A DNA stretch of 64,000 bases, taken from Klebsormidium nitens (taxonomy: Eukaryota; Plantae; Klebsormidiophyceae). Positions 1 to 52,166 of the stretch are shown in pieces. The stretch's first letter is position 1; each line of letters begins with the position of its first letter. The position numbers and the translations under genes were made by a program. Under the pieces are notes generated by a model. That model searched no databases. It had not been told where the DNA came from and was given only the letters and a program-made list of their open reading frames with translations. The stretch covers positions 2,177 through 66,176 of the forward strand of contig DF237442.1 in assembly GCA_000708835.1 (NCBI GenBank). The letters are read 5' to 3'.

Positions 1-420
1 GTCCCACCAATAATGTGTTGTAAGCAATGGCGCGAAGGTGTCCGAGCGTCCGAGTTTGAGTCATGTACCTTTTTGGGTCGAGCATGCTTGATGACGTCAG
101 CAGCTATCCCACCAATGATGCTCTGTACTTAACGGCACGAAGGTGTCCGAGTGTCCGAATTCCTCACGTACCTTTTTGAGTCGCGGCATGCTTGATGACG
201 TCAGCAGCCATGCCACCAATGATGTGCTGTAATTACGGCACGAAGGTGTCTGAGCGTCCGAGTTTTTCACGTAACTTTTTTGGCCGAGCATGCTTGATGA
301 CGTCAGCAGCCATGCCACCAATAAAATGCACTGCAATGAACGGCCCGAATTTTGAAGGTGTCCGATCAAGTGTTCAAAGATTACAGTGACGCATATTACG
401 AGCTAGCATGCTTGATGGAC
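1..420. repeat. Tandem array of a ~104-bp two-box repeat (about 3.5 copies visible; the array runs off the window start)
   Basis: CCACCAAT recurs at 4, 109, 213 and 315. The full units carry GTGTC(C/T)GAG(C/T)GTCCGA and GCATGCTTGATGACGTCAGCAGC. Confidence 0.9.
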
Positions 421-978
421 TACTTGGCGAATCTTTGGCTACATCAAAGACAGTGTATCAATAAATCATTGATGCAAGGTTTCTAACTCGGTTGACGATG
501 AGCCGCGGTTCAAGTTCAATTTGCAACCGTAGGCCCAGACTACGGTTGTACAAAGTAGCGCGTATATACTACTCGACTTCGTGATCGAGAATTCGACATG
601 GTGGCATTAGCAGTTCCATCCAACGCAAAAGAATGGGGTTGTACATGAGGTTGTACATCGGGTTTACCACCGTGTGTGGGTGTGTGGTATTGTAGACTTA
701 CTCAGTAGTTTCAACATTACGTGCAAACCCAATTCCAAGGTGAGACTAGGGGGTCTAAAAATTTCACTTAGAATGGTACATCGGCAGAGTTCGTGAAATT
801 CGTCCGAACGCATGCATAATAAATACCAAAGTGAAGGGGTTACTAGAATGTACACCTAGGGCATCTAGCTATCTCTAAAAAGGAGGACAATATGTACATC
901 TTAGGCTCCTATGCTCTACCAATTGAAGCAAGTCTAAGAGAAAGGCAATGAATTGACTCTACAGACGAGCGCTAACTA

Positions 979-3900
979 TCAATCATACTCGCACTTGAAG
1001 CCTAAATAGCACGAGCTCCGGTGGGATGACCCGTCATAACGGCCGGCTCGCTTCGTTCTCGCGTAACCCTTCTCTCGCATCTGCCTAGCCAACTCCTCCT
1101 TGGCAATCTTGACCCCTGTGAATCTCTGGAACTGCGTCCAGAACTCGTCCTCCCATGTGACCGTCTTGGCATTGTCGGGCGTGTCTGGCGGGTCGTGCGC
1201 GCAGTGCTCCGACTGCAGGAAGATCTGCAGCTTGTCTCCGCGCCGCAGCCATGCCATCGAGGCCGCCTGGACGGCCGCCGGATGCCTGCGCAAGACCGTG
1301 GGGTCCTCGTACCAGGCCCGACTTCCCTGGACGAGAAACGTGAGGAACTCCTCGCGGACCGCCAGACTCTCCATCCGGTCCTTCAACCCGACGTCCACGT
1401 GCCTGTGGTTCGGGTTGGTCTCGTCAAACTTATTCTCGGACACGTACTCGTTTGGGAAGCGAACCACGATGAGGCGGCGGTTGATGTTTGGCTGCTTGGC
1501 CAGGGTTGGGGGGATCTCGGGGTCGTAGTTAGTCTGGATGAAAGGCGTGTGGGTGAACCGGAAGGAGACGTTGTTCTGGAAGAGGAGCCGGGAGGCGACC
1601 ATGCCCCCGCCGGTCATCTTGAGCACGTCCCCCAGGTCGACGCGCTCGCCCGGGCTCGTCTCGTCCGTCACGGCCACCCGTTTCCCCTGAAGCTCGGCGA
1701 GGTAGCCCGTGGCAGCGCCCTTGGACGGCGGGCGTTGTCCGGGGGCCTTGACCACGGCGTCCTTGGACATGACGCCGTAGTATTCGCCCAGCGTGGTCTC
1801 CAGCATCTGCTTGCAGACCCCCTTGCCATTCCCTGCACGAGAAATGGGTCGAAAAGCACGTAAGCGGGCGTCTGAAATGGAGTTAGAGGATTCGTGATGG
1901 ACAAAGATATCAAAGCAAAGTGGACGTGATCATTTATCCCAACGATAAACGGTCAGGGATGGCTGCTGACGTCATCCAGAGGCGACAAAGAGAAAGGCGA
2001 GCGGGGAACTGGGACACTCGGACGCCTTCGCGCCATTCACCACAGTGGATTATTGGTGCAAGTTTTGATGAAATCACCAGAGTCACAGGCGAAAGTGCAG
2101 GGAATGGCTGCTGACGTCACCAGAGGGTCGACCTGAAAACGTGCGTCAAGAACTCGGACACTTGGACACGTTCGCGCAATCAATCACAGGCGAAAGTGCA
2201 GGGAATGGCTGCTGACACAGTCATCAAAGAGGTTCAAATTTGTATGTCCTAGGCTGAGCCTAGGACATACATTCTGAAAGGATACACAGAATGTCTGTTA
2301 AAAAGTGGGACACTCGGACACCCTCGCGCCACCAATCACAGGTGGAAGCGCAGGGAATGGCTGCTGACGTCATCCAAGGGGGTCGATTCAAAAACGCTCA
2401 TCAAAACCTCGGACACTTGGACACCTTTGCGCCATCAATCCCAGTCGACGACCACGGCCGAAAGAAAGAAAGGAATACTTGGACGGACAAAATCAGAGCC
2501 AAAGGAGAGAAAGACGTACCGCCGCTTCCGAGTAAGAACACAATAATCTCCTCCGAGGTACGTCCGTTGATGGCATACCCCCAGAGCCTCTGCATGAAGT
2601 CAATCAACGCTCGGTCCCCGTTGAAGATGTCGTCCAGGAAACCCTCGACGGTGAGCGTCGGGTGACCTAGCCCCTGCAAAGAATGATTTAGACGGTTCAA
2701 TCGAATTCTCCTTGGCGTCTTTTAAGTCAAAGGACGTCTGCCTCTAACCGGGACTCTCTTTGAAAGACGCCATGCGGACAAGCGCAATTGCAATCAAGCA
2801 CAAAGACTCGTGAGAAAGGGACAGGATGCCGTGAAGCGTCAACGCCCTGCCTTCAGATTCAGCTGTTGCGCTTATGCGTGTACATACCAGGCAGAAAGAT
2901 GCTTAGCACTGGAGGAAAAGACGCCAACCTGAACTAAAAATCAAGAAAGAGAGCGCAAAGCCTCGATACAGCAAACTCTTGACTCTTTCTAGTAAGTTGG
3001 TCCCCAAGTAACTCGCACGGATGCTTGCCTGAATAGGGAGCGATTGCAAGGACCAAAGAGAGACTCAAACAAGTATTTCTCTTTCACAATTCTTTTGTGC
3101 ACCAGAATTTCGACGATATTCCATCCTGAAATTGCATGACGACAGAAAACAAGCCACAACGTGCAAACAAAACACCTTGTAGTTGATGTCAGCCAGCTTC
3201 GTGCACAGGTACTCCGGCCTGTGGATGTCCAGCTCGCCGGTGCGCAAGTTGACGACCCCATTCTGGACGTTGAGGATGTCTGGATTAGAGTCCAGCTCCC
3301 CCACCAGATCCAGGGCCATCTCCCCCATCATGATCGTCAGGGTCGAACTGATCTCGCCAGCGTCGTAGTATCGTCTGACTCTGTCAAGAGCTTTCTTTAG
3401 CTCCATCTTCTCCTGCTCGTCAGTGGTTACGCTCAAACGCTCTTTCAATTCGGCTCGAACTCGAGCATACACAGTGCTGAGCTGGTGGAGGCAGACAAAC
3501 TTGATCTTCTCGGCAGTAGCCTGCTTGAAACGCTTCCCATCCCACATCCACCAAGTCTTCCCGTCGTTCCAGATCCTGCAAAACCTCACGAAAAGGTGTC
3601 ACTCTGTGGGCTAACACCGTCAATGCCTTCAAAAGTCAGCGCTTAGGAGCCGTAGCGCTTGACATAACGAAACATGCATGGGCCGGCGGCTGCTAACTTC
3701 ATCCTGAGCTCCTGAACAGAAGACTTTTTCTGTGAAAACTCGGACACATGGACACGGTGCAGGCTTTCTACGACAACAAACTTAAGGTGGGATTGCAAGT
3801 GGCATCACCCCCGAGCTCCTGAAGAAAAAAGGTTGGCAGCAATCGAACACTTGGACACGGTATACAATGCAGGCTCTCAATTCCAGTGAACATCTGGCGG

Positions 3901-6900
3901 ATTAGATGCTGACGTCATCCCGAGCTCACGACCCAAAAAGGTTTGCTAAAGCTCGAACACTTACACGGAACACAGTGCATGCTCTCAATCACAATAAACG
4001 TCAAGTGAAAGAGATGCTGACGCCATCCCAAGCTCCTCATCCAGAAAGGCTAGCTGAAAAACGGACACGAAGACAAAGACGACAATAGGAGACATTGATC
4101 ACGACAAGAATTGAGCAAGATGCATGCAGACACTTTCTCCTTGAGATGAGCAGGAGAGCAACAGGATGGAAGACAATGGCTGCAGCTTCATTCAGGGGAG
4201 TTTTCCAAAGTCGCAACCGCTACCACAGAGAAAAAGGAGTAGATGATACCACCTGTGGCACCTCGAGTACATCTGTGCGACGATCCGACTGGCCCCCATG
4301 TCACCTTTGAACGCCCAGTAGTCCACGAACGGCTTCGTCAGCTCCTTGTACACGGTCGGGTCGTCCTCAGAAACTGGGGCTGTCTCGCCCCCCATCATGC
4401 TCTCTTTTACCGTGAGCTCACCGATCTTGCGCGGCGGGTGAATGTCACAACATTCCGGGCTGTTGCACTTGTAGAGGAGGTTGCGACCCCGCACGAGGAC
4501 GCAGAAGTTGTTGGAGCCGCTGTGATTGGCCCCATACGGACACACGCGTGCGCCATTCACGCGGAACACGTACATGTCGCCCGCAGAGGACCTCTTGAGC
4601 TTGTCAAAGCATGAGTCGGAGTCTCCAGCGTCCGCGAGGCACTTCTGAACGCGCTCCAGAACAGCTGGCGGAGGGGGCAGCTCGATTTCGTGGGCGTCGA
4701 GGCCTTCCGCGAAGCGATCGGGTGGCTGTGACGCTGGCCTGCAGATGAAATCGAATGAGGAGGTCCCTAAATGGAAGGGAAGAGCAAGCACCGCCAAGGA
4801 AGATCTGCTTAAATGCGGCCCAAAATGGGCCGAATACCGCCTGACTACGAGCTTGACTGCGAATTTTAAGCCAGACAACTCATCGTTCGGAAAGAAGCTG
4901 GATGCGCCCCCCCGGAATTGCCCGAGCACGGCCGAGAGAACAATCAATGCACGGATTTACAAAACAATCTCGTCGCGCTCTTTGCAAGAGCCCGATTGCA
5001 ATTCAACGAAAGTGCCTGAAACGCGGCCCAAAGCAGATCGACTACAGTGAAGGAACCAGCATCATTGTGTCCCAAGAGCAAACCTAACTTTGGGCTCGGA
5101 TGCTGGTCGAATTCAAGCTGAAATCTTGCGCGCCCCTCAATCTTGATGCATCAGAACCAGGCTAGCTGCGCCCCTAGCCTGACTGGGGCCAAGAATCGGC
5201 TTTCGCTGTGGGCAAGAAACCCAACTGTGCCTCTCCAAATCAGCCTGATTGTGTGACCCCAAACAGCCTGACTGTGCTTCGCCTTACAGCCTGACTGTGC
5301 GGCCCAAACAGCCTAGGTCTAGACAAGAGAGTTGCCTAATTGCATCCTCCAAATCGGCCTGATTGCCTGATTGCTTCCAGGACAGGCTGGGTGGCACGCA
5401 AAGACCGCGGGTAATGCAGAACGCGCAGAATCAGACTCCAAGCACACGACAAGCGTAAACCCCCATGCAAGCTTCTTGATCCAGACATGGAAAACCAAAA
5501 AGGGAATAGTACCTTGGTGGTGCTGCAGGTGCGCTGCTGTCATTGATGATCTTGATCAACCACGATGGCATAGCCCGAAGGTTGGAGCGGTCTGGAATAT
5601 CTCCTGCACCCACTCGTACCGCCGGACCGCGCCGTCCACGCCCTTGTAGCTGCTGGGGCCCACAAACAACATGCCCCCCTCGCCACGCGTGTCGAGGCCC
5701 ACTTTTTCGCCTTCGTAAACCAGACCTTGCCTTCCGGCGCCACTCAGCAACCCCGCGGCCTTGGACAGCGACAGGGAGAAGAAGAAATGTCTCCCAGGCC
5801 TGTGTCCCGACCACTCCCATGGGGTGTCATCAGGCAAGGGGCCGTGAGCTGCCAGCATCCGCTCGAAGGCCTCCGCCCCGCCGTCCTTCGCGTCGATGTC
5901 GAGGGCGTAGATGTCGGAGGGCTGGGTCACAATGGCAAGGCAGCTTTTGCCAGGCCGGACACCTCTGCGCAAGCAGTTGCCGAGATCGCACTCCTTCTGC
6001 CACCCGCGCATGAGGTCAGCAGGCTTCTTGGTCTCCTTGCCCTCCTTGTCCAACTCGACTTTCATGTTGAACGTCAGCGATGCCACGCCCATCGCGTGAA
6101 AGTGATGGGCGGCGGCCAAGATGGGGTCGACTCGCGACGGCCTCCCCACGTCAGATGGGCTCGGTACCTGTGGAGGACGGAAGCATCTGTGAGGTTGGCG
6201 CCTAGCTTTGGCAGTTGCACGAACTCTGGGGAAGGGGATCTCAAACCCTTGTTTCGCCCCTTGTGCACCATCATTGTTTTGGACTCAGGAACTTGGATTG
6301 GCCCCAAACTGGCCCTCGACCCAACCCCCTTTGAAGTAGATCTAATCTGGCCCCCAAACTTGCCCTTAAAATCTGGCCTCCAAACTGGCCCCCGAACCGG
6401 CCCCAAGCCGGCCCCCAAAAACTGGCCCCCAAACCTGCCCTTAAAAGGCCCCCAAACTTGCCCCCGAACTGGCCCTTAAAAACTGGCCCCCAAACTGGCC
6501 CCCCAAAACCTGGCCCCAAAGTGGCCTTCTAGATCACACATGTAAGTGCACCTGTTGCGCATCAAGTAGCAGCCCTAGGTGCGCTTGCGCTTCCCTTTTG
6601 CTTTACCAAACGGGCTGGACTCGTGCCAGTCATAACCATCATAAGAAAGATGCTCCATTCTTACTTCGCGACTCGGTACGTTTGTCAGGTGGTACGCCAG
6701 ACGCTCGAGATACACACTCATTCGGGCTTCCCATATGGCCTGGTCCCTGATGACGGGCACCCCGAGCTTGCGCCAACCGTAAGAATCCCTAGACTTGAGC
6801 GAGCACAATTTCAAGTTTCGCAGTAGACACTTCCAGGACGGGTACCAAGATAAAACTGCCCTATTCAAGGAGCCCACCTGGCAAGGAGCCGCCGTCTCCT

Positions 6901-9900
6901 GCACCGCGATGCCCTGGGGAACGGCGGAGGGAGCAATAGGTGCTTGGGCGGTCGAGGAGGGCAAAGGGGTGTGGGGCGCAGCCACGTCCGGCTCTGGCGC
7001 AGCAGACGTGGAAGAGCGGGCAGGGGCGGAACCGGAGTTGGGCGCGTCCCCCAAGTCCTGGGGTGCAGCAGGTGTGTGCTGCTCCTGCTGGGCCGCCCTG
7101 GTCGCGCTCTGGGCAACTACGGCGCTCCGGATGGGGTCCGACGGCAAAGTGCGCGGCTCAAGCGAGGTTAGCCCGGCCGCGTCAAGGGCGGTCGGGGCAC
7201 CGTCGGCAGCTACGGCCTGCGAAAAAGGTGATAAATTTGGAATCAAACCGTTAATCCTTCACCCTCGTAGCGCTGCACGAAAAGCTGCACCTTTCTTGAG
7301 CATTCCCTACGCGGGGTCAAGTGAAGCCTGATGAACGAGCAGAACACAAGGCGCCCCTTCTCAGTGAGTACTTTGTTGGAATGCAGGTGCCGCGTCTCGA
7401 ACTCTGAACGTGCTTTGAAAATCTGTGTTTTATTGGCAGGCATTCTCGATTGGGCGCGACGAGCACCAGCCGCTCATGCAAGGAGACAATGATTCTCTGA
7501 GCATGTACACCTCCTGCCCTCTTGCCAACCCAGAGGGTCACTGAACAAACCGCCCAAGGCTGTCCAAGTTTCTAATCGCTTCGGAAACTCAAACCCTAAG
7601 ATTTCGTGTACATCAGCAACCCAGGCGGCGATTGAATGGCGATGTACACAAAACCAGCTTTCAGGTCGGCAATTGTATGGCGGTTGATGTACACAAACAC
7701 CAGCTTTCACCTCGGCGATTGAATGGCGGTTGATGTACACCAATCTGTCACTACGTCCTGTAAACTTTCGCAACTTTGCCAGCAATTTGCGCGCTGGCTT
7801 TTCTGGGCACGCAACCATACCTTGATGCGATTTGCTGAGTGCCCAAAATCTGACAACCTAGAGTTCTGTCCAGATGCGAGTCAGGGGAAGGGGGGAGGGT
7901 GCTCACCTGGCGGCTGATCGAACGCGGACGCGGGGCGATCACACACGCTCTCGCAAAGTCATCCTCCAGGCTTAGGTCCAACAGGTCCAGCCAGCCGTCG
8001 TCCTCGGGCTCTGGTGGGAGGTCGTCGGACCAGCCGTCGTCCTCAGGTTCCGAAGGGAGGTCGTCTGGCATTGGGTAATCCGTCCCAAGCGCAGACCCTT
8101 CTTCCGGCATGGGGGGGTGCTTGGCGATCACGCCCTGGCTGCAAACCGGGGAGTGCGGACTGTCCTCCTCGCTCGAGGAGTCAGACTCGGGTGACAGCAG
8201 CACGCGGCGGCGACGGCTGGTTTTGCGCGGGTTGGTCGCCCCATCAGGCGCGCGCCGCTTGAGCCTTGCCAGCACCTGGGAAAAATCCTCTTCATCGGAA
8301 TCTGTCTCCATCGCGGCGAACCGGCCGCACCGCACCACCTCGTTCTCCTCTTCCTGAGGGGCGTCGTCGATCATTGCGCGATCTTGGGAGGTTTCCTCGT
8401 CCGAGGTCTCGTTCGCGCTCTCGAACTCCGCCCCCTCAATGTCCTCGCCCTCCCATTCCGACTCCGTCTTCTGCGACTCGTCTCCGCAGAAGAGGCGCGG
8501 CGCCTGCCGATCATCGCCGCCCTGCACAAGTGTGCGCGCCGCCAAAGATCAGATGAATCGATGAAGCAATTAAAGGCGAGCTGCTGGTTCCAAAATCAGA
8601 TGCTGTCAAAAGTCCTTGTCCAAGTGTCCGAGTTCTTGACATGCCTTCTGGGCTCGGGCCTGCTTCGTGACGTCATCAAAGATCAATGGCAATCTGATGG
8701 CAAATGCGAGTTGAGACACACTGCCAGCACCTGTCCAAGTGTCCAGGTATCTGGAGTGCTTTCTGGAGTGCTTTCTGGGCTCGGGCCTGCTTCGTGACCT
8801 CATCAAACATCATGGCAAAAACAGTTGAAGATTTCGATGGAGCAATCTGATGCGAGCTACTGGTTGGACCACAACATGCGCTGCATCGCAGAAACCCGTG
8901 TCCAAGTGTCCGAGTTTCTGTCGCACCTTCAAAGGGCAAAGCTTCATAATGACGTCAGCAAACATCCCGAGTAAATCCCTGTGTGGTTGATGGGGCAGAC
9001 TCTGTCCGAGTGTCCGAGCTCTAGTCACACCTTTCAAAAGCGAAACTCCAGGATGACGTCAGCAGACGTTCTAGAAGGAAACTTTGTAGTTGATGGGGCT
9101 AACACTGTCTGAGTGTCTGACTTCTTGCCATACCTTTCAAGAGCGAAGCTCCTGGATGACGTCAGCAGACGTCCCAGGAAGAAAACTTTGTAGTTGATGG
9201 GATTTGGGAGGACATTGTCTGAGTGTCCAAGTGTGTGACGTGCCTTTTGGGCTCGAGCCTGTATCGTGACATCATCAGAAACTATGGCGAGATGAGTTCT
9301 TAAGAGACAGCCACCAGATTACAGATATGATTCTTGCGGCTACTTAGGCAAGTTGGGGGAAGGGCTGTTCAATCGACTTCACACTTACCTCTGAGTCGTT
9401 GGTGGCCGCTTTCATCTGGCTAAGATGCCACCTGATTCCAGAAGTCTTATAGGGATGTGTATGCAAATGGATATGCTTGCTTGGTTCTCTTATTAAGCGA
9501 CCGCATGCAGTCGCACTTGAAACGCACCTGGCTGCATTGTGCGCTGGACGACTGTGGCCGACTGTCAACGTCCATGGATGCTCCAGGAGCGCCGGCGGGG
9601 GTCTCGATAGGGAAGCTGCTCGTCATCTTCTCTGAAGGGCTCGGGATACCGTCATCTGGGGCGCCTCCCTCCTGCACGTAAGCGGGAGGTGTTGATCAGA
9701 AGTTTGCCGGACAGGCAAAAGTCCAAGCGAAAAAGGCGCAAGAAAGGCCTCAATGCTGGCAGGTGGACCGGCAAGTGTTCATAAATGATCGTGCAACATC
9801 ACGACAACAGACTGCTTGAGCACGTGTTGCTGACGTCCTGCCTTCTGGGCTCGGGCCTGATTCCTGACGTCCGCATCTATCATGACAAGCCGAGCTGTTA

Positions 9901-10947
9901 ACAGAAGAGCACTAGTTGTCCCCAAATCACTGGCATGATTCTCGAGGTACGCCTGCCTAGTAGATGAATTCGACACAATCCAGAGTTATCTTCACACGAA
10001 CCTGTGAGTCGGTGGTGGCCGCTTCGAGCTGCTGTGAAGCTGCCACTTCCTCCCTCAGCCTGCGTTGAAAGTCGCGGAAGTGGCTGGGGTCGATGAGGCC
10101 ATGTAGTGCAGGCCCTTGCGGTTGGCGGGTCTCATGCTCCTGCAAACAAAGAAACGTGTGGTGGGATTGTTGGCAAAGAGAGGGGATTGTCAACCGCTTG
10201 AAAAACGGATTCTTCAAGCTGCCGTGTGCAATGATCGGGCACGGAATTCCGACCGCTGAAGCATCGGGAGGTATGTAAGAAGGAAGGCAACGGGTTGCTT
10301 TTTGTTTTTGAAGAGTGTTAACCAGATGTGCTTGACGAGCCACCTGTGTTCGATGGCAAAGGAAAGATCTCGAGCTAACCCCTGAGATACATCAAATCCT
10401 GAAAGGCGTCCTTACCAGAATTCTTGTCCGAAGTGCGCCTGCTCGCAGAAGAATCTTCAATGAACAATCTGACACCAAACTAATCTCGATTGTGGTTTAC
10501 CCCCCAATAAAGACATCTCAGACAGTGACCACGCCATCGAATACGGAGGATCCTTTCGAGGATGGCTGCTGACGTCATCTAGGAGCTCGGTCTGAAAAGG
10601 TGCGACAAAAACTCGGACACTCGGACAGAGTCCGCCCCATCAACTACAAGGCATCCTATCGGGGATGTATGCTGACGTCATCAAGGAGCTCCCCTCTTGA
10701 ATTGTGTGACAAAAACTCGGACACTCGGACAGAGTCCGCCCCATCAACTACAAGGCATCCTATCGGGGGTGTATGCTGACGGTCGTCAAGGAGCTCCCCT
10801 CTCGAAACGTGTGACAAAAACTCGGACACTCGGACAGAGTCCGCCCCATCAATATGGATACCTCACCTGCAGCCCTTTGGGCAACATGAAGGAACTTTGA
10901 GAGCTGTCCCCAGGAGCATGGCCACCAGGAGAATCCGTCTCCTCCAT
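979..10947 (-). CDS. Spliced D5/P4-type primase-helicase (acidic N-terminal extension + Prim-Pol + Zn finger + D5_N + SF3 helicase + C-terminal wHTH-like domain), about 1290 aa; one 1-nt frameshift, so possibly a recent pseudogene
   Basis: Phase-consistent GT-AG exons: 10947-10867, 10139-10002, 9671-9528, 8521-7907, 7216-6878, 6167-5513, 4738-4253, 3575-3176, 2673-2520, 1832-979. Prim-Pol motifs: IYALDID, GRHFFF, LDTRGEGGMLFVGPS, MPSWL. Zn motif: CPYGANHSGSNNF..YKCNSPEC. D5_N: WWMWDGKRF, LDSNPDILNVQNGVVNLRTGEL. Walker A GSG|GNGKG is rebuilt across the last intron. Walker B VAVTDE, motif C FIQTN, Arg finger NRRL. The five 5' exons are less certain than the five 3' exons. Confidence 0.88.
1950..2430. 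repeat. Two-box repeat copies in the last intron (opposite orientation to 1-420)
   Basis: Repeated GGGAATGGCTGCTGACGTCA...AACTCGGACACTTGGACAC units. Confidence 0.85.
3735..4075. repeat. Degenerate two-box repeat copies in intron 7
   Basis: AAACTCGGACACATGGACAC, GATGCTGACGTCATCC..CTCGAACAC, GATGCTGACGCCATCC..AAACGGACAC. Confidence 0.7.
5235..5320. repeat. Short ~21-bp tandem repeat in intron 6
   Basis: About 4 copies of CAGCCTGA(C/T)TGTG, the last truncated. Confidence 0.7.
6296..6527. repeat. ~12-bp minisatellite (GGCCCCCAAACT) in intron 5
   Basis: Many degenerate tandem GGCCCC(C)AAACT / GGCCCCCGAACC copies. Confidence 0.9.
7625..7745. repeat. ~45-bp tandem repeat in intron 4
   Basis: About 2.7 copies of CGGCGATTGAATGGCGGTTGATGTACACAAACACCAGCTTTCA. 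Confidence 0.8.
8610..9280. repeat. Two-box repeat copies in intron 3
   Basis: Repeated TGTCC(A/G)AGTGTCCGAG...GATGACGTCAGCA units. Confidence 0.85.
10560..10852. repeat. Three near-identical ~105-bp two-box repeat copies in intron 1
   Basis: TGCTGACGTCATC..AAAAACTCGGACACTCGGACAGAGTCCGCCCCATCAA three times; box A of the third copy is degenerate. Confidence 0.9.
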
Positions 10948-12094
10948 TGCCTGCACAGCGTGGGAAATAGAGAGGAAGTGGGTAGAGCAGATTACAAAAA
11001 TTACGCATCAGCATCACCATAAACAGCACACATTGTTCGACCATAGACAGTGAGTATTCGATATGTCCCCCCCTCCCCCCCTTGGACAAGAACCAGCACG
11101 CGATCCCACAATCGACCCCAGTGAACCGTGAACCCGTTCGACAGTGGTCACAAGATCGGCCCGACAGCGGGCCCTGATTCAGCGGAACCACCCCGCTTCC
11201 CCAAGCATCAGAGAAGTTAGCGCAGCGGCGACTGTGATACCCCCCAGCAGCTTGGCCCTTATCAAGCTTAACAGCTGATTTCAGCCAACCCAACGCTGGG
11301 GCCAAGTCAGCAAAGCTACGGGGTTTGAGATCACCCCACAGTATAAGCCCATCAGCAAGTCCAGACCTGCCTAACAGCAGATGGTCAGAATCAGCCAGCC
11401 AAAGCACCTGATGCGCGCTATATACCTGGCGCTATTGCAAGCGTCTTGACATACGAAGGCTCACTTGCAGCTCTTCGTCAACCCCAATGATAGAACCATA
11501 ATAAAGAAATGTGTTCACTGAAGGAAGAATCGCACAAAGAAGCTTCTTCAGTTTGCATTCCCTGTGACGGACGTACCTGACGGAAGCTTCTTTGTTGCGG
11601 CTGAGCAGCTCACCACGGCCTTCTGGCACAACAATCTCAACAATTCGAAACCGTCTCAGGGCAAAAGCCAGGCAGTCCTGAGCTCTGTCCAGCAGTGTAG
11701 GAAAGGTGGTAATATATATGCCTTGGGCCGCAGCAGGTTCGGGCCGGATATTCCAAGCTGCTGCTGACTGTATATTCGGCTGGATGTGCTGTATTTCTTG
11801 ACAGCTGGCACTTTCTCATACCTTCTAGAAGGCTCGGGGTATACCGGCCATACCATGTAAAATGCTAAAAATATTGTAGTATACGGCGCTGCCGACGTCA
11901 GAATCCTAGTGTGACTGAACACTGCAGGTTTGGATTTGGGACGGACACTTGGACGCAAGAGTGCACTCAGAGCGAAGTCGTTACCGTGCTGATGTGAATC
12001 AGAGCGGTAATGGTTAGCCCCCGGTTGGCTTCGACCTCCTTGTTGTCCTTGGAGAAGCCTTTCGACCGCTCGGTCTACCTGCCACCCCTTGGGC

Positions 12095-12147
12095 GGGCTG
12101 ACATGGCGCTCTCTGAGTGGCCCGGATTTTAGTCCGAAGTTCATTTG
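12095..12147 (+). repeat. 53-bp direct repeat, copy 1 (copy 2 at 15319-15371)
   Basis: GGGCTGACATGGCGCTCTCTGAGTGGCCCGGATTTTAGTCCGAAGTTCATTTG; 50/53 identical to copy 2. Confidence 0.9.
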
Positions 12148-12237
12148 CTGATGTTGGTTGTTGGGACTGGGTTGTGACATCATTGATCACTTCTAAAGCG
12201 CCCCAGTGGCAGTAGCTTGGTGCAGGAGCGCTATTAA

Positions 12238-12525
12238 ATGGGCAAAGACTTCGATGATTTGGTGAAAGAGTTGAAAGATTTGGGGTTCAAGCAGCGAAAG
12301 AAGAAACTAGGTAACGGCGACATCTGCTTTTATCACGTAGATTACCCAAACTTCGGTTTCTTAAGGGACTCTAACGTCAATAATTCATTCAGGGTCAAAA
12401 CTTACGTTGATAAAGCAATTGAATTCTTGGAGGAGGCCAAACGCAACGCAGCGAAGGAGGAAGCAGAGCAGAAAGAGGCTGAAGAAGGGCCGGGGAAAAA
12501 CAAGAAAGGGAAGAAGAAGAAGTAA
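12238..12525 (+). CDS. HicA-like (dsRBD-fold mRNA interferase-like) protein, 95 aa, intronless, with a basic C-terminal tail
   Basis: KDFDDLVKELKDLGFKQR..GNGDICFYHVDYP..RVKTYVDKAIEFL follows the HicA pattern (F-x-DL-x-K-x-L-xxx-GF, then FYHPDYP-like, then VKQV-x-KAIE-like). It lies directly upstream of a HicB-like gene. The usual GSH His is not evident. Confidence 0.6.
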   Translation: MGKDFDDLVKELKDLGFKQRKKKLGNGDICFYHVDYPNFGFLRDSNVNNSFRVKTYVDKAIEFLEEAKRNAAKEEAEQKEAEEGPGKNKKGKKKK

Positions 12526-12993
12526 TGGCTGGTGCGGCTCACCATGCAATCTGCTGTTTAAAGAGTGCATAAGTCCATGTTCCGGCCTAGCATTCTGAGT
12601 CCAGGGCCTTTGTGCTCGCGTTGGTCACACACTGCATCCTTGGTTCTTGAAGTAAGAGCTTGCGACAGTTTTTCCGCGACATTTTCATCAATTGAGTCTG
12701 GAGAAGGGCCTTCTTTTTGAATCGTTGATCGAGATTCGAGGAGCTGCTTTTGGGACTTCAGGAGGCTACTTGCGTTGGATGTTTCCTTATCGCTTTGCTG
12801 CATGAGCAAGGAGGTCAAGAATACCTCCTGTTGGGCATCACCACGTTGAATAATATCTGAGATGGTCTGGCAGTGGGACTGCGCTGTTAGGTTATGATCC
12901 ACAATTTCACCACACATGCTTTTGCAGGAATTGATGCTAAGATTCTCCTTTGTCCTCTTGCCAGCGGTGGGGCAGCAAGTGGTTCAGCGCGGC

Positions 12994-14222
12994 ATGGGGG
13001 CCAGGGGAAGATTCAAGGGGGAGGGAAAGGGGAAGGAGCCGCAGAAACGAAAACGGACTGAAGCAGGTGGTGCGAGCGGCAGCGCAGCGGAAGGCGGGAG
13101 TCTGGAGCAGGGCGCTGCAAAGCTGAAGGCGGGAGAGTGGACGCGCGTCAAGGAGGCGGACGACTATGATGTCAAGGACGTGTTCTCCAAGGTGCTGCAC
13201 GGGCTGGAGTACCCTGCGTACGTCTCGCGAGAGCTGCACGAGGAGACGGGAGTCCCCTTCTACTATGCGGAGGCGCCCGACATCAGGGACCTCTGCACCA
13301 TGAGGCCCAACGCGCGGGAGGTGAGTGGAATGAGCAGCTTCTCATCGGAATGTTCATGCTCGCCTCTTTGAGATATGGATGGCTGTTCAACTCATTCCTG
13401 CAGTTCAATTACGGGCGAGGGCCTTCGGCCCAATCAGTCAGAGTGTATTTGTGCCTTCCGTTGAAGGGACTGAAGTGCTGAGGCATGTTTGCCTTTCCTG
13501 GAGGCATGTCGCTTTCCTTCAAGCATGCTTTCTCTGGCACTGCTGCTCGCTTCCTGGCGTGTTTATCTGCGGATGGTGCACATTCCAGTGTGCATGCTGA
13601 AGTCAGCAATTGCTAACGATATTTTCCTGAGATCGCACTCGTTCATCTGCAAAAGTTGCAACAGAAGTCTGGTCGGAAAGGTTTGGTTTTGACATTCAAT
13701 GAATGCTTCGATGGCAGGCGCAGGATGTGCTGGCGCGCCACCTCCACGCGGAGCTGGCAGAACGCGCAATCATCAGGATGCTGCCACCGCTGCCGTCGCC
13801 AGACCTGCCGCCGAATTCGGTGAAGCCGACCTACACCTGGAAGATACGAATCGACGGGGAGAGGTAAGAAGGGCAGCGGGGCCACAGACTCAATCGATCG
13901 CATGGATCGCATGGATGTGTACGGCAAACCTTGCTCAGGTGCAGAGCCTTGAGACTTGCGAGCGCTGCTGCATTGGCAGGAAGCTGTTTCTTGTTTGAAA
14001 TGCACGCATTAACTCTCTCTGAAACTCTTGGGTTTGATCTCCAGTCCTAGCTCTGTCAGAACTGAATTGCGTGAGCCAGCCAAAGACGAAACGCAAAAAA
14101 GAGAAGGTTTGTCAGGCTGTATATGGTGACCAGGTTCTGATTGACTCGTTGAAATTTGCAGGCTCACCCGGTTACTCAACAGCATCGACATCGGCCATGT
14201 CGAAGCTACCGATTCGGATTAG
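12994..14222 (+). CDS. HicB-like antitoxin, 3 exons, 177 aa from ATG 12994 (may gain a 5' exon from the HicA-like ORF)
   Basis: Exons 12994-13320, 13718-13863, 14162-14222 are GT-AG and in phase. Product YPAYVSRELHEETGVPFYYAEAPDIRDLCTMRPNARE|AQDVLARHLHAELAE..PLPSP..KPTYTWKIRIDGE|RLTRLL matches HicB features: YP start, Y-x-A-x-x-PD(I/L)-xxxx-T, EA helix, PLPSP linker and an RHH-like strand-helix. Exon 3 is the least certain. Confidence 0.65.
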
Positions 14223-15318
14223 TGTGCTAGGCTCCTATATTGTTAAGGAAATAAGTCAAACGATGTTTGTGTGTATGCTTCGCCAAGCAGGGGATGCAAA
14301 AGCAGGGGCAGGCGTGCGAGCGCAGCTAGAGTTAGCCAAGACAATAAACAGGCGGGCGCTTGCTTCTGCAGACCAGGGGCGGTGTGACCTCCTTCATGAA
14401 AAGCTCGGACCTCGAATTCGTTTCTTCATGTAATTTGCGGGTGTTCTTTCTCGAGGTTTGTCTACCTCACTAGTGGCTTCATGAAACACGGGCATGAGAA
14501 AGCATGCGCAAAACAACTTGTTTCATAGAAGAATCCGTGCAAAGCAGAGCTCATCTTAGGTGCGCGTCACCGCCCATGCAATTAATGTACAACGCCTTCT
14601 TGGTGTGCCCTGCAAAATCCGGTTTAAGTTATGGAGTGCATGCTGTTCTAAATTCCGATCATGCATACTCTTGCACACTATAGGACACAATTCAAAGTCC
14701 TTGCATGGTTTAGCAGCTTGGGTGCATCTATGGTTATATAGGCAGCGTCGTCAGCGGGCGAAATGCGAGGCTAAGGAGAGTCGACGATTCCGAGTTACGA
14801 ATAGCGGGGAAAGCGGGCGCGTGGACCCCACCATGACACGGGATTATCGTCAACGGGCGCTCATAAACTATACAAATTCGATTTACCTACAAAGTGGGTA
14901 AAACTTTTTGTGCTCCAGCTGCATTTAGACACTCGATTGAAAAGCAATGCGTCACAAATTAACACGACAAACTCGCCGGATAGCTACGACGCCGCGCGCT
15001 TCACTGGGTCAACACCGTCGTGGGCCGCTGTAGAGTCCGTGAACTCCTTTTTGACACAACCAACTCGGACACCGTCCGTAAGTTAATCCGGACGCGCGGT
15101 CGTCGTAAAATTAAATTGATAAGTCGGAAATCGCCGACGGTGGGTACTTCCTCCACACTTAAGGAAAGAAAGGCTGCATATTGGCCTCTTGTAAGTTGTC
15201 CCTAAGTGAGTGCCCGGTTGATACCAGACAACACAATGTGGTATGTACCACTTCCGGGATGGGCCTTCGACCGCGGTTAGGCACCGGCCTGCTACCTCCA
15301 CTCTTGCGACTCCCGGGG

Positions 15319-15371
15319 GGGCTGACATGGCGCTCTCTGAGTGGCCCAAATTTTAATCCGAAGTTCATTTG
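15319..15371 (+). repeat. 53-bp direct repeat, copy 2
   Basis: GGGCTGACATGGCGCTCTCTGAGTGGCCCAAATTTTAATCCGAAGTTCATTTG. Confidence 0.9.
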
Positions 15372-15642
15372 GCTTGCTGTTTACCGTGCCAACGACTTGG
15401 GCATGCTGGGGGATCCCCCGCAATCATGGGGTCGCTTGACAGTTGCGCTTGACAGTGGGGGGGGTCTTCACGAAAGCTCATAGAGCCCCTTGTCTTGTCA
15501 ACTTCATATGCAGGGATGCGCAGCATGGGTTCGACATCAGAATCTTCTGATCAAACCTCTTTGTCTTCATTACTTTTAGGAGGTTTTCTCCAGAGGATGC
15601 TGTCCTGAGTTGCAGAATTGGAAACAGTACGTCGCTGGTACG

Positions 15643-18600
15643 ATGGAGGGGCCCGCCGAGGAAAGCGATTTTCGGGTGCCTGCAATTGCGGCAGCTTGCA
15701 GCGTGGTGGCCAGCATCTTCCTGCTCTGGCGGAGCTTCCAATTGACCAGAATCCGTCCCCATTCTGATACAGAAGCGGACATCAGCAGTCCGTTGCTACC
15801 CGACTCTGACAGGCAGTTCAGACAGCGATCAAGCTCCGCCACTGTACTTTGGCTGGCAGTTTCCATATCCCTAGCCCAGATTATAGGTCAACTGTACATA
15901 GTTTTTTCCTTTACGCATGCACAATCAAGCGCACAGCTAACCCAGTTTGTGACCCTAACCCTTGCCTGGGGTGCGGCGCTGCTGTTAAGCTTGTTGGAAC
16001 ACCGCAGAGGGTTAGCTTTCCCTGGTCCAATTCTCCCCTGGTGGTGGGCGCTAGCAGCTGGCATCAGCTTCGTCTCTGCATGGCAAGTGCCCCACGATCG
16101 CGCCACCTGGCGGCCGGAGCTTGCGACACACCTCCTCAGCGGCGCCCTCGCTCTTGTTCTAATAACCGCCCACGCTATCACCACCGCTTACAGCGCCTTT
16201 GCAAAGAGCAGCCCCCACACCCCCCTGGTGAACGCGTACGATCGAGCGGGACCGCTCTCGCGCCTCACGTTCTGGTACATTCTCCCCCTTCTCAAGCTCG
16301 GATACAAGCGCCCCCTCCAGCCGGTCGACGTTCCCCCCCTCCCGAAGACAGACGATCCTGAGCCCCCCACCTGCCGTTTCCAACTAGAGTGGGCGAAAGA
16401 ACGGGCGAAAAGCAAGCCGTCGCTCCTGCGAGCGTTGTTTCGCGTCTATGGCGGCCGCGTCGCCCTGCAAGCGATCCCCTGTTTCATAGCTGAGGTTGGC
16501 AGCCTTGCGTGCCCTCTCCTTCTCCAACGGGTTCTCACATACCTAACACAAGATACCGGGCAATCAGGGGCTGCCACCTGGCGCGCAGCAGAGTACGCGC
16601 TGGCCTTCTTCTTGTTCACGATGATGAGGTCAGCAGGGACGCACGCCATGTGGATGCAATTAATGCAGGTGTCCATACAGTGTAAATACACCCTGATTGC
16701 GGCGCTGTATGGGAAAGTGCTGCGAATGCCCCCCGCCGTAAAGGGGAAGCACGCGGGGGGAAAGGTGCAGAATCTGGTGGCGAGCGATGTGGATGCGATC
16801 ACGGGGAGCGTGCTGCCGTACGTGCAGTGGTGGACTGTCTCCATGGTGAGAGATTTTTGGATGATGGCAGCTCTTTTATCTGCTTTTGCAAGATTTGGCT
16901 GTGATTGCTTGAGGGTTAAGACGCCAGTTCTTCTGGTGGCGACACGATCACAGGCACCTCAATGTTTAATCGCTCTCTCCTGCGAAAGTATGGGCAAGGC
17001 CTTGGTTCCCGTTCGCACCTATAGCCTTGACCACACTGCAAGCTGTGCGGCGATGGGTTTCCCTGTGGCTGCCTTGGTTCCAGTGTCTGTACCAAAAGTC
17101 CTTTTGGAAGTCAACTACGAGAGAGTAGACGGGTTGGCAGACCAAAGGGAGACTCATGGCCAGCACAGCTTTTGCCCGATGAATTACCGGGGAATAAGCG
17201 TTCTTCTCAGGTAGTCTGCCACATTTGAGTCAGCCCCTTAGAAGTTCGGCACCGTCCAATTGGGGTGTAACACCCCTTTCGGATTCTCCGATTGCGGCTC
17301 AAAGGCCTTCACACCAATGTTCGGTTGCCCAGCTATAATCGGGGGTAATTATGGCAGACTGCCTCCCTGACTGAATTTTCAGCCAGTCAGAGGTTCAATT
17401 CACGCTTGCTCTGTCATTCTGACAACGTGGGGATCTGCCTGTTCTGCTTTGTGACACTCATGTCGTATGCAGCCGATACCAACTAGGAGTTCGCACTCTA
17501 ATTAGTAAGATGTGGGACACTGTTGAGAGTTTCTCACTCTCTTCTTGCACCGCTGCACTCAGGTCAACTCAAGCTTTTTGACTCTTTCTCAGGTAATGAA
17601 CACGATTCTCCCCGGGTTCTTCCTGTACCGCCTGGTTGGCCCCGCGTACTTGATCGGCATCAGCGTGATAGTTGCGCTGCTCCCCGCCAGTGTGTGGGTG
17701 GCCGGCATTGTAAAGCGCGTCACCAAGACCATGTACGAGGCGCGTGATGCACGCGTCAAGCTGCTCGGGGAAGTGGTTCGCGCCATCCTAGTTGTCAAGT
17801 GCCTCGCGTGAGTGCTTTTACTCCGCCCATAATTGCCTCGCTGTCTCCTTCAGAGCTCTAAGGCTGTGTCATCTTTGCTGATTGATTGGCCTGAGAGGCT
17901 TTTCGCATGTTTCTTCTATATGGAATTGTCCAATACTCTCAAGCTTTGACATGGTCTTAGCAGGTTTCAGGTGCAGTCTGCGTCCTCGCTTTGAAGGTTT
18001 GCTGGCGCCGTTAATTCTGGGCGAGCCTTGTGTCCAAACAGCGGGTGCGCTTTTTTGACATGGATCAGCAAAGCTTTTGATGTCTCACTGCCATTTGAAC
18101 CTCCTCCGAGGCAATGGGGCATAAGCAATGCACGACGCCTTCCGCAATTAGAGTCCCAGCCTTCAGAAAATCGAGTTCGAACTCTAAGCACTCAAATTTC
18201 GTGCTTCCTGTGGCGCAACCATTTCGAAGCGTGAAGTTACATATACGGGTAACAACTCTGCCCTTCATACAAGTCTCTACCAAGTCGAATTCCCAGATCA
18301 CATTTCAGAGATTTGGAAGCGCTTTCAAACCTCTACCGAGTGTCCTGAATCGACTCTCCTTTATTGACTCGCAAAAGTGTCCATAATCTGCCCGCTGACA
18401 CCACCTTCTTGGCCTTCGCCCAGGTGGGACGACCTCATGCTGACGTGGATCACAGAGAAGCGCGCGGCGGAGCTGGCGCAGCGGCTGCGCCTCGTGTGGT
18501 GGGAGCTGAGCGAGGTTCTGCTGTGGGACACTGTTCCGGCGGCCGTTCCGCTCGTCACTTTCGCGTGGTACTGCCTCGTCATGCGTCAGCAGCTGACGAT

Positions 18601-26683: not shown

Positions 26684-27087
26684 TATCTACCTAGTCCACG
26701 CCGCGCGGTTTCTTTGTCAGGTTGCACCTACCCAGAGTCTGAGCCCCGGGCCCCGGCCCGGTTCCCAAAAAGTCCGGCGAAGGTCGTGATCTGGATTCTG
26801 AAGCAGCGGAACGAGTCACCGACCGGATCCACTGCAGCCGTGGTCTGATTACGCAGAGATCGCGATCCGCTCCAACCCGGCGCAGCCACTGGTCGTACCG
26901 CGTGCCCGGGGTCCGGACTCCGCTGGAACGTGTGCGCTGTGAGGCTGGACCAACCGGGCCGGGTACTTTCCTAGACCACGTGAACTCAAATCTGTGTGCA
27001 CTTTCCGAGTGATCTCCTGCACTGTGCAGTGTGCACTCAACCAGAGGCTACAGTCAGGCTACAGTCACCAAGTTGCTATTAGTATTA

Positions 27088-27630
27088 GGGGAAGGTCATT
27101 TTGAAGTGGTACCCCCCCTAATTTTTTGTGAGGGGGGGGGGCCTAGGGCTCTGAGCGCGGCTCGAGGTCCCTATGGGGGGGGGACACACCCACACTTTGC
27201 TCACGGGAGTGCTTGATGGGGGGGCACCTAACGAGCTTGGCCTTTTAGGTAGCTCAAGGGGGGGGAACATGGATCCCGGTCCCCATTTTCATGTGATTCT
27301 GAGGCTAAATCAAGCTCCAAATGGCGTATATGAACTAATATTCGTCAAAAACTTCTTGCAAAATGCCCCATACGAAAATCTTGAACGCAGATTAGCAAAG
27401 AAAAAGGTTTCATATGCCCGCATAAGCGACTTCTCTATCCAATTTTGGCTTCTCCCAAATACAGATATGGGGGGGGTACCCAGGGCCTTGATCCGGAAAA
27501 ATTTATATGGGAGGGGGGCCCGACGCTACGATTCCACTTGGGCCGTGGGTATGGGGGGGGGACCCAGCGCTCCCGGCAAAAACCCTCTACAAATAATTAG
27601 GGGGGGTACCACTTCAAAGTGACCTTCCCC
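27088..27630. mobile_element. PIF/Harbinger-type (Tourist-like) MITE, 543 bp
   Basis: ~35-bp TIRs GGGGAAGGTCA(T/C)TTTGAAGTGGTACCCCCCCTAATT; TTA target duplication at 27085-27087 and 27631-27633. Confidence 0.88.
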
Positions 27631-27999
27631 TTAGGAATCTCGAATCCATGTGCCTTTCACCTGTGTCAGTGTGCCTACATGAGTCGATGTCAGGTCAAAA
27701 TCTTCGGGCATGGAGACATCCTCCCTGTCCATTGGTGCGCAGTCCAGGAAAGCAGGGTGCAGATTGGGCAGGCAGCAGAGTTGACGCGATTGACTGAGCA
27801 CGTTCAGCTCTCCCACCTCACCCTCTTGAACACGGTCGTTTGGATTCGTTTCCCTTGATATTTGTTGGTCCTTAGGTGGCGCGCAGGGCTCCTGTCAATG
27901 CATCGCAGGAGCTTCCCAGCCTCTTCTTGCTGCAGCTCACAAAGGTTTGTCTGCAGCTCAGCAGCTGGTTTGCGCTTTTGCTCCTGACTGCTTTCGAAG

Positions 28000-50951: not shown

Positions 50952-52166
50952 TCAACTCTGAAACCACCAATTATCATGGTCTAGGCAGTTGAACTCTTCA
51001 GGAACTATTCTATCTTCGTTGTGGTCTTCTGTTCGATTATAAGAATGGAAGCCCCCAGTGATTCTTTCCTTTCGAGCTTTCAAATAACTTATCTCCTCTA
51101 TCGTATAGTTCTGCTTCCGCCGGGATACCCCGTCTTCTGTCATAGAAATGAAGTCAAGTGGCATCCACCCAGCAACCCAACCGTACTGATGCCACGCGCG
51201 CGTCATAAAATCGTGATCATCATCCCCGAGATAGAAGTTAACCTCGTCAAAATATCCAAGCGCCCTCGTCTTGTCAGCAACTAAAAGCAATGGCCCGCGG
51301 TTGACGGTATCCCTGACATGGAAAGTGCACATGGTCTCTTTACTTGCGTTCAAAGGGCGATCAAGCTCAGTACCTTCGCAGCGGCCCACCTTCTCCGGCA
51401 GCGTGCTTTCCTGAATGCTGTACGCCATGTGGGCGCACCGTCCGCTGACGGCGACCACATCAGAATACAAGTGTGCCGGAACAGCAAGAATAGAATTCCA
51501 ACCGCGGGTGATCATCTGCATATCGTCTTGTACCAGCACAAGGAGCGTTGCACTTGGGTGGCTCGCCCTCATGCCAATATTGTTGGCACTTGTCTCCCAT
51601 ACCGGAGTTGGCTGTTCGATCAGCAATACATGTGTCAAGGAGTCAGGGTGCCTGGCATTCTGCAGAAGAGCCAAGGCCAGATCTTGAGAGTTATCCGTGC
51701 AGAAGTCAAAGACAATGATGAGTTCCCATAACCCCGTCGTGTAATCCAGGAGTGCTTGCAGGTTCTTCTGCAGGAGTCTGCTCTGATTATGTACTGTTAG
51801 AATGACGCTGAACAAAGGCTCCTGAACGGACAGCCAATAATCCAAAAGGATGCACGGAGGCTGTTGCAGCCCCTCGATATACCCGGGTTGGTTCACCAGA
51901 TCTTGTAGAGGGGCCAGAAACCCGCACCCTTCCTCCGGTTGCTTCTCACACTGGCACTGGGGATACTTCCCAGGAGATCTGTGGCTTGCCGGGCCTTGGA
52001 TAACGCCAATGGGGCTCAAAATAGTCAACTCAGCATTGTGTGGAGAATGCAGGGAATCAACTAGGGATCGCGCCGGGTGGTACAGCAAAAGTGTGCCGAA
52101 CAGCAACACAGCTAGCCTGAGACACTGGATGGTAGTGGGGCCAGTAACCCCGACACTACTACCCAT
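50952..52166 (-). CDS. Glycosyltransferase family 2 (GT-A fold), type II membrane protein, single exon, 404 aa
   Basis: N-terminal TM segment LAVLLFGTLLLY; PLFSVILTVHNQ..LQALL..ELIIVFDFCTDNS; NNIGMRAS; LVLVQDDM; GYFDE. Confidence 0.85.
   Translation of the reverse strand: MGSSVGVTGPTTIQCLRLAVLLFGTLLLYHPARSLVDSLHSPHNAELTILSPIGVIQGPASHRSPGKYPQCQCEKQPEEGCGFLAPLQDLVNQPGYIEGLQQPPCILLDYWLSVQEPLFSVILTVHNQSRLLQKNLQALLDYTTGLWELIIVFDFCTDNSQDLALALLQNARHPDSLTHVLLIEQPTPVWETSANNIGMRASHPSATLLVLVQDDMQMITRGWNSILAVPAHLYSDVVAVSGRCAHMAYSIQESTLPEKVGRCEGTELDRPLNASKETMCTFHVRDTVNRGPLLLVADKTRALGYFDEVNFYLGDDDHDFMTRAWHQYGWVAGWMPLDFISMTEDGVSRRKQNYTIEEISYLKARKERITGGFHSYNRTEDHNEDRIVPEEFNCLDHDNWWFQS

Follow-up and report, generated by a model that had tools for sequence, protein, structure and literature searches.

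The first 15,371 nucleotides of a 64,000-nt stretch of the Klebsormidium nitens genome (assembly GCA_000708835.1, contig DF237442.1, positions 2,177 to 66,176; hereafter, the window) hold a block that is real, expressed, and unusual. We read this block, with confidence and doubt in even balance, as two adjacent spliced units of prokaryotic type: a frameshifted copy of a multicopy primase-helicase gene and a single-copy, two-gene transcript of likely bacterial hicA-hicB origin. A first-pass annotation, made from the letters of the DNA, had proposed one integrated mobile element with a Prim-Pol-SF3 helicase, iteron-like repeats, and a HicA/HicB-like addiction or defense module. Helicase, repeat, and gene pair are all real, yet they are probably not one element (Table 1). 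Our statements on copy number and co-occurrence rest on assembled contigs aligned to the window. DNA contigs came from run X1 (possibly the source sample itself) and were aligned at 80% likeness; RNA contigs from four studies (including runs X5, X6, and X13) provided the splice joints.

A spliced and frameshifted primase-helicase gene

The primase-helicase gene occupies the minus strand, from above 11,577 (about 11,600) down to 979, in 11 exons that encode, in this order, a low-complexity acidic N-terminal region, Prim-Pol, a zinc-finger-like motif, D5_N, and an SF3 helicase. All 10 introns are of the GT-AG type; nine of them appear as joints in RNA contigs from the four studies and the tenth as loose contig ends. 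The assignment made at first pass was borne out by profile matches to PF09250 (Prim-Pol; 5559-6167; E, 7.2e-16; 59.5 bits versus a cutoff of 22.8), PF08706 (D5_N; 3176-3574; E, 7.1e-17; 62.5 bits), and TIGR01613 (982-1830; E, 1e-16), the single exon scoring 60.4 against the TIGR01613 cutoff of 108.7. Two of three annotated K. nitens paralogues (P0001 and P0002; 114.3 and 137.3) exceed this cutoff, and the third scores 104.4. The Prim-Pol exon holds a DID motif and G-x-H. Walker A (GSGG/NGKG) is interrupted by the intron at 1833-2519; the gene also has Walker B (TDET) and motif C (QTN). A Pfam scan of the zinc-finger-like exon (4253-4738) returned no match; we take its motif to resemble the PrimPol/UL52 zinc fingers. 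The earliest in-frame Met of the gene is at 10,947, and the paralogues match the N-terminal region (6878-10950) at 40 to 48%.

A one-base frameshift near 5,597 terminates the first frame at 5,556, past the Prim-Pol core. The frameshift is genuine in this strain, because the paralogues read through the site and an X1 DNA contig covering 4662-5628 (967 bases) matches the window with 0 differences and 0 gaps. This copy therefore cannot be autonomous as it stands. A comparable arrangement exists in the Streptomyces plasmid SGLP1, in which the primase-polymerase and the P4-family helicase are two overlapping genes (L001:11229-13792); its match with the split made here by the frameshift is probably a coincidence. 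Tandem repeats occur in 8 of the 10 introns, three of which hold distinct ones (23, 12, and 46 bp, at 5235-5314, 6347-6526, and 7641-7740). RNA contigs of near-identical paralogues (979-6167) reach depths of thousands to >10,000 in run X6, far above this copy or the ABC transporter gene to the right of the block. Such depths do not rank expression levels; if the family were indeed strongly expressed, that would be surprising for primase-helicases. Residues 112 to 129 of the paralogue P0001 (KFL_006270020) hold a 2A-like motif (a hydrophobic stretch, then CVESNPGP), which is absent from window positions 1-16,500; motifs of this kind are said to occur in non-LTR retrotransposons.

Phage and plasmid primases are the closest relatives

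Outside K. nitens, the closest relatives are P4-family primases of phages and Streptomyces plasmids, with 23 to 31% identity over the helicase part and E values down to 7e-29 (tblastn; 885 phage and 488 plasmid records). The Prim-Pol part lies nearest to clusters dominated by tailed phages (score, 0.95). Poxvirus D5 and African swine fever virus (ASFV) C962R gave E values of 7e-8 to 8e-4, from programs and libraries that differ from those of the phage and plasmid search, and similarity scores alone would not establish the donor lineage of the gene. P4-family primase-helicases (TIGR01613; PF09250 plus PF08706; phrog_1156) have the same order of Prim-Pol, D5_N, and SF3 helicase. Unlike the primases of actinobacterial phages and Streptomyces plasmids within this family, the algal gene is nuclear, carries 10 spliceosomal introns, and is multicopy. 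It exceeds a bare replicase in size through an acidic N-terminal extension of ~450 aa and the zinc-finger-like insert, and it has no integrase alongside. Exact-pattern scans of viral (IMG/VR), metagenome, and prokaryote contigs, which here and below are weak evidence of absence, revealed no loci related to the helicase, and a length-limited protein search (497-2000 aa) with the last helicase exon yielded no relative outside Klebsormidium.

A fusion of primase to SF3 helicase in a eukaryotic setting is likewise a feature of Polinton-like viruses (PLVs) with AEP-S3H and of the D5 proteins of nucleocytoplasmic large DNA viruses (vaccinia virus D5 and ASFV C962R). We considered whether the unit belongs, as replication gene, to a larger endogenous virus (an AEP-S3H polinton-like virus or a giant virus) with its capsid and integrase genes past the left break. 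In the accessible portions of the respective papers, some PLVs encode AEP-S3H fusions (PMC11161782) and Klebsormidium carries giant-virus core genes (PMC5294986). The left end of the window is an assembly break; in X1, the sole contig that crosses a window end does so on the right. This origin is nevertheless very unlikely, given that the unit is most similar to primases of phages and plasmids, far more so than to the viral proteins, that the pattern scans of IMG/VR found no relative, and that the 15 kb hold no viral gene. The block is also intron rich and devoid of capsid, packaging ATPase, and integrase genes, and the D5 column is empty for Klebsormidium in the table of PMC5294986, as far as the accessible part of that source extends.

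The primase-helicase unit was duplicated as DNA

The search with the last helicase exon among annotated proteins of 497 to 2000 aa recovered the three paralogues KFL_006270020 (78%), KFL_007640060 (73%), and KFL_002130220 (46%), to which the DNA contigs add several more near-copies. Several distinct X1 contigs overlie the helicase exons and the noncoding flank at 545-978, and some introns are common to them too. X1 contigs with a letter other than that of the window number 7 at position 1531, 6 at 1186, 3 at 728, and 3 at 3381. Summed X1 depth, which does not equal copy number and is taken only to mean several copies, is 148 to 168 at 601-1800, 131 at 3001-3600, and 69 at 5401-6000, compared with 14.8 to 17.6 in single-contig zones. 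It drops to 32 to 39 at 10,801-12,000, and the multicopy signal is over by ~12,000. The primase-helicase unit is thus multicopy and, since introns and 3′ flank are held in common, was duplicated as DNA together with them and not via RNA. The copies range from 46% protein identity to >95% DNA identity, which suggests repeated recent duplication.

The copy in the window is likely a decaying member of a family of self-copying DNA elements. By analogy with P4-family primase-helicases, the intact paralogues would both unwind and prime the DNA that encodes them, and the frameshifted copy would need the primase-helicase protein in trans. The integration step would lie past the assembly break or come from host repair. 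Several observations weigh against mobility, which we infer from copy structure alone. In agreement with the first-pass annotation, which saw neither integrase nor capsid, none of 12 exon pieces and 29 further frames of positions 1-15,400 gave a transposase, integrase, or capsid match; terminal repeats were not found either. Folding of five flank stretches gave no evident hairpin or Helitron-type ends. The single further DNA run appears base converted (C>T, 882; G>A, 636) and reveals no empty site, and insertion polymorphism was not observed.

The same gene could be read as a domesticated host family that expanded by ordinary segmental duplication and is no longer mobile. Its canonical GT-AG introns, host-like GC content at third codon positions (GC3; 0.81 to 0.86), and long acidic N terminus of eukaryotic style fit such a history, as does the splicing of RNA from this copy and its near-identical paralogues across the four studies. 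We regard domestication as unlikely, because the span of identities suggests repeated recent duplication, the copies have a noncoding flank and a private repeat in common, this copy is frameshifted, and the length-limited search found no relative beyond Klebsormidium. Returning to a self-copying family, an amplifying, intron-rich primase-helicase unit without visible integrase or capsid fits no described class of eukaryotic transposons or polinton-like elements, and it may mark an undescribed element family. We found no literature on this primase-helicase family or on nuclear HicAB in a search whose coverage leaves out most subscription journals.

A 103- to 108-bp repeat travels with the unit

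A profile built from 15 of its 22 copies detects the repeat (E < 0.05) exclusively within 28-10,847, and a 16-mer core gives 19 matches, all below 10,837, versus 0.25 expected. Three hits past 12 kb are at chance level (E, 0.46 to 0.94; the best E in five shuffles was down to 0.012). Confinement of the repeat family to the block, as first described, therefore holds within the window. Units are 103 to 108 bp long and 63 to 87% alike, and each bears a TGTCCGAG-type doublet and a TGACGTCA palindrome. Nineteen of the 22 copies sit, in both orientations, in five introns of the helicase gene. Iteron-type origins consist of near-identical repeats of ~20 bp in the same orientation within one origin array. 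A classical iteron array was rejected on the grounds of unit length, divergence, mixed orientation, and spread over five introns plus the 3′ flank, so the label "iteron-like" does not suit this family.

A paralogue has a repeat-bearing intron at the position of intron 3576-4252, with one extra unit (joint 3962/3899, in contigs of both DNA and RNA). Hence the repeat moves together with the primase-helicase unit, and paralogues bear it as well. Its 103-bp copies would serve as sites for binding or priming; alternatively, they would be a passenger minisatellite. Exact-pattern scans found no copy in metagenome and viral contigs, and an Rfam scan of 1-16,000 returned no matches.

Two overlapping open reading frames on a spliced message

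To the right of the helicase gene, and head-to-head with it across about 300 to 600 bp, lie two open reading frames (ORFs), the unannotated ORF1 and ORF2. The pair had been described as divergent, which is true with respect to the helicase gene; the two ORFs are co-oriented with each other. Spliced ORF2 is identical to the annotated KFL_004930020, whose gene number, on a scaffold of 69,822 bases, suggests that the window begins close to the scaffold's left end. The joint 12530/12964 was found in three of four RNA runs, and the joints 13318/13716 and 13861/14160 were found in all four; the spliced message carries both ORFs. The stop codon of ORF1 overlaps the start codon of ORF2, and a single ATG lies between the two start codons. 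One X1 contig of 4,037 bases spans the pair region (11,200-15,236) with 0 differences, and it is the only X1 contig over 12,001-14,400. A single full-length mRNA likely carries both ORFs. Two facts limit this claim, namely, that the splice joint spans only 29 letters on the ORF1 side and that contigs retaining the first intron exist. A contig of run X5 keeps this intron (12,513-13,321), and runs X6 and X13 have both forms. Alternative splicing at this site could shift the ORF1:ORF2 ratio.

Bicistronic nuclear loci are known in chlorophyte algae (PMC7896298), and leaky scanning is described for algal bicistrons (PMC11291117); in the accessible parts of both sources, these loci likewise have two short ORFs per spliced transcript and few ATGs before ORF2. 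Here, in contrast, the host is a streptophyte and the ORFs overlap instead of being spaced, apparently as a legacy of a bacterial operon. Ribosomes would translate ORF1 and then ORF2 through reinitiation at TAATG or leaky scanning. A UAAUG junction like that of ORF1/ORF2 reportedly supports termination-reinitiation in the hypovirus CHV1.

The pair resembles bacterial hicA-hicB

ORF1 and ORF2 probably descend from a bacterial HicAB pair, a conclusion that joins individually weak lines of likeness with gene order and overlap. Bacterial HicA has a fold like that of double-stranded RNA-binding domains, and HicB has a partial RNase H fold at its N terminus. In the bacterial operon (HicA, PF07927; HicB, PF15919; structures 4P78 and 6G26), as here, a small basic ORF is followed by a HicB-like fold, with abutting stop and start codons. 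Junctions were measured at 17 of 28 bacterial loci; all 17 hicA/hicB pairs abut within −11 to +5 bases, one of them at TAATG. The predicted fold of ORF1 (helix, three strands, and helix, or H-E-E-E-H; predicted local distance difference test [pLDDT], 68) aligns with HicA3 (4p78_D; Z, 3.9; root mean square deviation, 3.2; 59 residues aligned) and with Burkholderia pseudomallei HicA (Z, 3.5). ORF1 further shows the L-x3-G-aromatic spacing and a basic C-terminal tail, and only 8 of 2000 shuffles do as well on the HicA profile. Its 95 aa fall within the 50- to 100-aa range of HicA proteins given in the accessible part of PMC11594946. For ORF2, 8 of 10 structure matches in the Atlas are HicB-family-named clusters, aligned over residues ~80 to 170, and the template modeling (TM) score by row is 0.69 to 0.84 in six of these; Atlas feature scores (0.79 to 0.84) are a lead only. 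A phmmer search of 1.84 billion representatives matched ORF2 to itself, to three exon-sized metagenome pieces (36 to 70%), and to one marginal entry. The three pieces terminate at the intron positions of KFL_004930020, so the gene is older than this strain.

Other results count against this descent. No Pfam, NCBIfam, or PADLOC match to HicA or HicB exists in the block. Profiles of HicA and HicB (22 proteins each, from actinobacterial genomes; two loci from unpublished genomes were dropped beforehand) failed to single out ORF1 and ORF2 among the 741 frames ranked. ORF1 is only sixth of these on the HicA profile (hhalign probability, 3%; E, 0.014), and 40 of 2000 shuffles match the score of ORF2 on the HicB profile (hhalign, 0.5%). 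In the fold search with ORF1, double-stranded RNA-binding domains tie with HicA and two unrelated chains score higher (Z, 4.8 and 4.5); Foldseek gave no match at E ≤ 0.001. A word search of proteins of 52 to 167 aa and searches of plasmids, phages, and PDB sequences yielded no homologue of ORF1, and exact-pattern scans of viral contigs found neither ORF1 nor an ORF2 homologue. All Atlas matches of ORF2 are flagged as lying under the bar for naming, with TM scores by query of 0.36 to 0.45. Its AlphaFold model (pLDDT, 43.5) matched no structure and is too poor to exclude HicB. In sum, the initial description of a HicA/HicB-like pair stands in part: the Atlas model of ORF2 resembles HicB, and ORF1 is weakly HicA-like and matches no family.

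Lacking a homologue and with a GC content of 44%, below that of its neighbors, ORF1 could be a plain upstream ORF. Under such an account, ORF1 would have arisen by chance and ORF2 would be a solitary gene of Klebsormidium whose small fold is HicB-like, the two being no operon relic; the weak profile and fold scores of ORF1, its want of a family match, and the poor, unmatched model of ORF2 are in keeping with it. We find this account doubtful, since HicA size and topology, the L-x3-G-aromatic spacing, hicA-then-hicB order, an exact TAATG, and a HicB-like neighbor are unlikely to occur together.

The pair differs from bacterial HicAB in its three introns, the lack of a family-level sequence match, added basic stretches, and an Asp at the position of the catalytic His. 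The basic stretches are presumably nuclear localization signal-like. In bacterial HicB proteins, a C-terminal helix-turn-helix or ribbon-helix-helix domain is common (PMC11594946, accessible part), whereas none was recognized in ORF2. His24 of HicA, in the β1-β2 turn, is needed for toxicity according to the available portion of PMC3969222. The corresponding turn of ORF1 (residues 24 to 28) holds no His, and hhalign places Asp28 opposite the His of GSH, in an alignment that is weak (E, 0.014). That ORF1 encodes an active RNase toxin is unlikely. With Asp replacing His, RNA binding would be a likelier activity of the HicA-like protein than RNA cleavage, and the putative HicB-like protein would bind this partner. 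A retained regulatory module is thus a likelier role for the pair than an addiction system.

Should the pair indeed stem from HicAB, it would represent a bacterial operon that, within a eukaryotic nucleus, has gained three introns yet kept its overlapping stop and start codons, an unusual case of operon survival in the plant lineage. It would offer a direct test case for the survival of operons and toxin-antitoxin pairs after transfer to eukaryotes and would add a streptophyte to the algae with bicistronic expression. The unannotated ORF1 shows that gene callers overlook such bicistrons.

The two units are probably not one element

Spliced transcripts, together with the P4-family and HicB-like likenesses, uphold the earlier view that genes of prokaryotic mobile-element type have here been adapted to the spliceosome. 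A single integrated element carrying both units, with the hicAB-like pair as addiction or defense cargo, would account for both being of this type and transcribed, for their head-to-head placement, and for a faint repeat copy at 11,887-11,956 (E, 0.24). This copy lies in the divergent promoter region that both genes share, so their adjacency may reflect joint arrival. We consider a single element improbable, however, because the multicopy signal ends at ~12,000 with one contig over the pair, no repeat copy lies to the right of 11,956, K. nitens yielded no second HicB-like protein, ORF1 carries Asp28 opposite the catalytic His, and termini were not found. The pair rests on one single-copy contig outside the amplified unit, as opposed to up to seven contigs with other letters at one helicase position, and the addiction-module reading is therefore unsupported. 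The fullest version of the proposal, a self-replicating spliced element family with origin repeats in its own introns plus a working, element-borne HicAB toxin-antitoxin pair in a plant-lineage nucleus, is more doubtful still and quite unlikely.

Table 1. Features of the primase-helicase and ORF1-ORF2 units in the window
Position	Strand	Feature	Evidence or remark
28..417	+	Repeat array, three clear and one faint 103-bp copies, 3′ of helicase gene; window begins inside array	Profile
545..978	.	Noncoding 3′ flank, common to other unit copies	Several X1 contigs differ from the window at 620-977; some copies diverge at 769 (loose end)
979..1832	-	Last exon: SF3 helicase (remaining Walker A, TDET, QTN) and C-terminal domain	RNA joint 1831/2519
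1942..2434	-	Five repeat copies in intron 1833-2519	Profile
2520..2673	-	Exon with helicase-domain start (LGSG of Walker A)	RNA-contig loose ends 2675 and 3175 fit splicing
3176..3575	-	D5_N exon	PF08706; RNA joint 3574/4252
3686..4068	-	Four diverged repeat copies, 108-bp period, in intron 3576-4252	Profile
4253..4738	-	Zinc-finger-like exon, C-x6-H-x-SNNF...C-x4-C, also in paralogues	Motif inspection
5513..6167	-	Prim-Pol exon with one-base frameshift near 5,597 and stop at 5,556-5,558	PF09250; DNA contig
6878-7216, 7907-8521, 9528-9671, 10002-10139, 10867-10950	-	Five exons, acidic/proline-rich low-complexity N-terminal region	RNA joints
8611..10847	.	Ten repeat copies: introns 8522-9527 (+, six), 9672-10001 (+, one), 10140-10866 (-, three)	Profile
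11577..12000	-	First, noncoding helicase exon and divergent promoter region, upper limit unmapped	Joint 10949/11576 in three of four RNA runs
12091..12147	+	Dispersed ~60-bp motif, upstream of ORF1	Second copy 15,315-15,371
12238..12525	+	ORF1, 95 aa, unannotated	Absent from protein collection
12523..12527	+	TAATG, overlap of ORF1 stop and ORF2 start, 4 bases ahead of first intron	Sequence
12525..14222	+	ORF2 (KFL_004930020), 189 aa; introns 12532-12964, 13321-13717, 13864-14161	RNA joints
15315..15379	+	Dispersed ~60-bp motif, second copy, upstream of host ABC transporter gene	X1 contigs

The right flank and host genes

The right end of the block had been placed at 15,371, which does not hold as a boundary. 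A 57-bp direct repeat considered as an element terminus was rejected, as it belongs to a dispersed ~60-bp motif whose second copy is left by at least 13 X1 contigs with different downstream flanks. Both copies of the motif in the window lie upstream of a plus-strand gene, and the motif may serve as a promoter module or be a small mobile element. Within each copy (12,091-12,150 and 15,315-15,379) lies an ATG-to-stop frame of 9 codons, whose stop position is the same in both. Ordinary host genes follow the block, as first noted, beginning with an ABC transporter gene from about 15,500. Farther right are presumably a MYB-type factor (near 28 to 31 kb), a glycosyltransferase-like ORF (50,952-52,184), and a DEAD-box helicase (near 58 kb). 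Inverted repeats of 43 nt (95%), 459 bases apart and resembling a miniature inverted-repeat transposable element, lie at 27,087-27,631.

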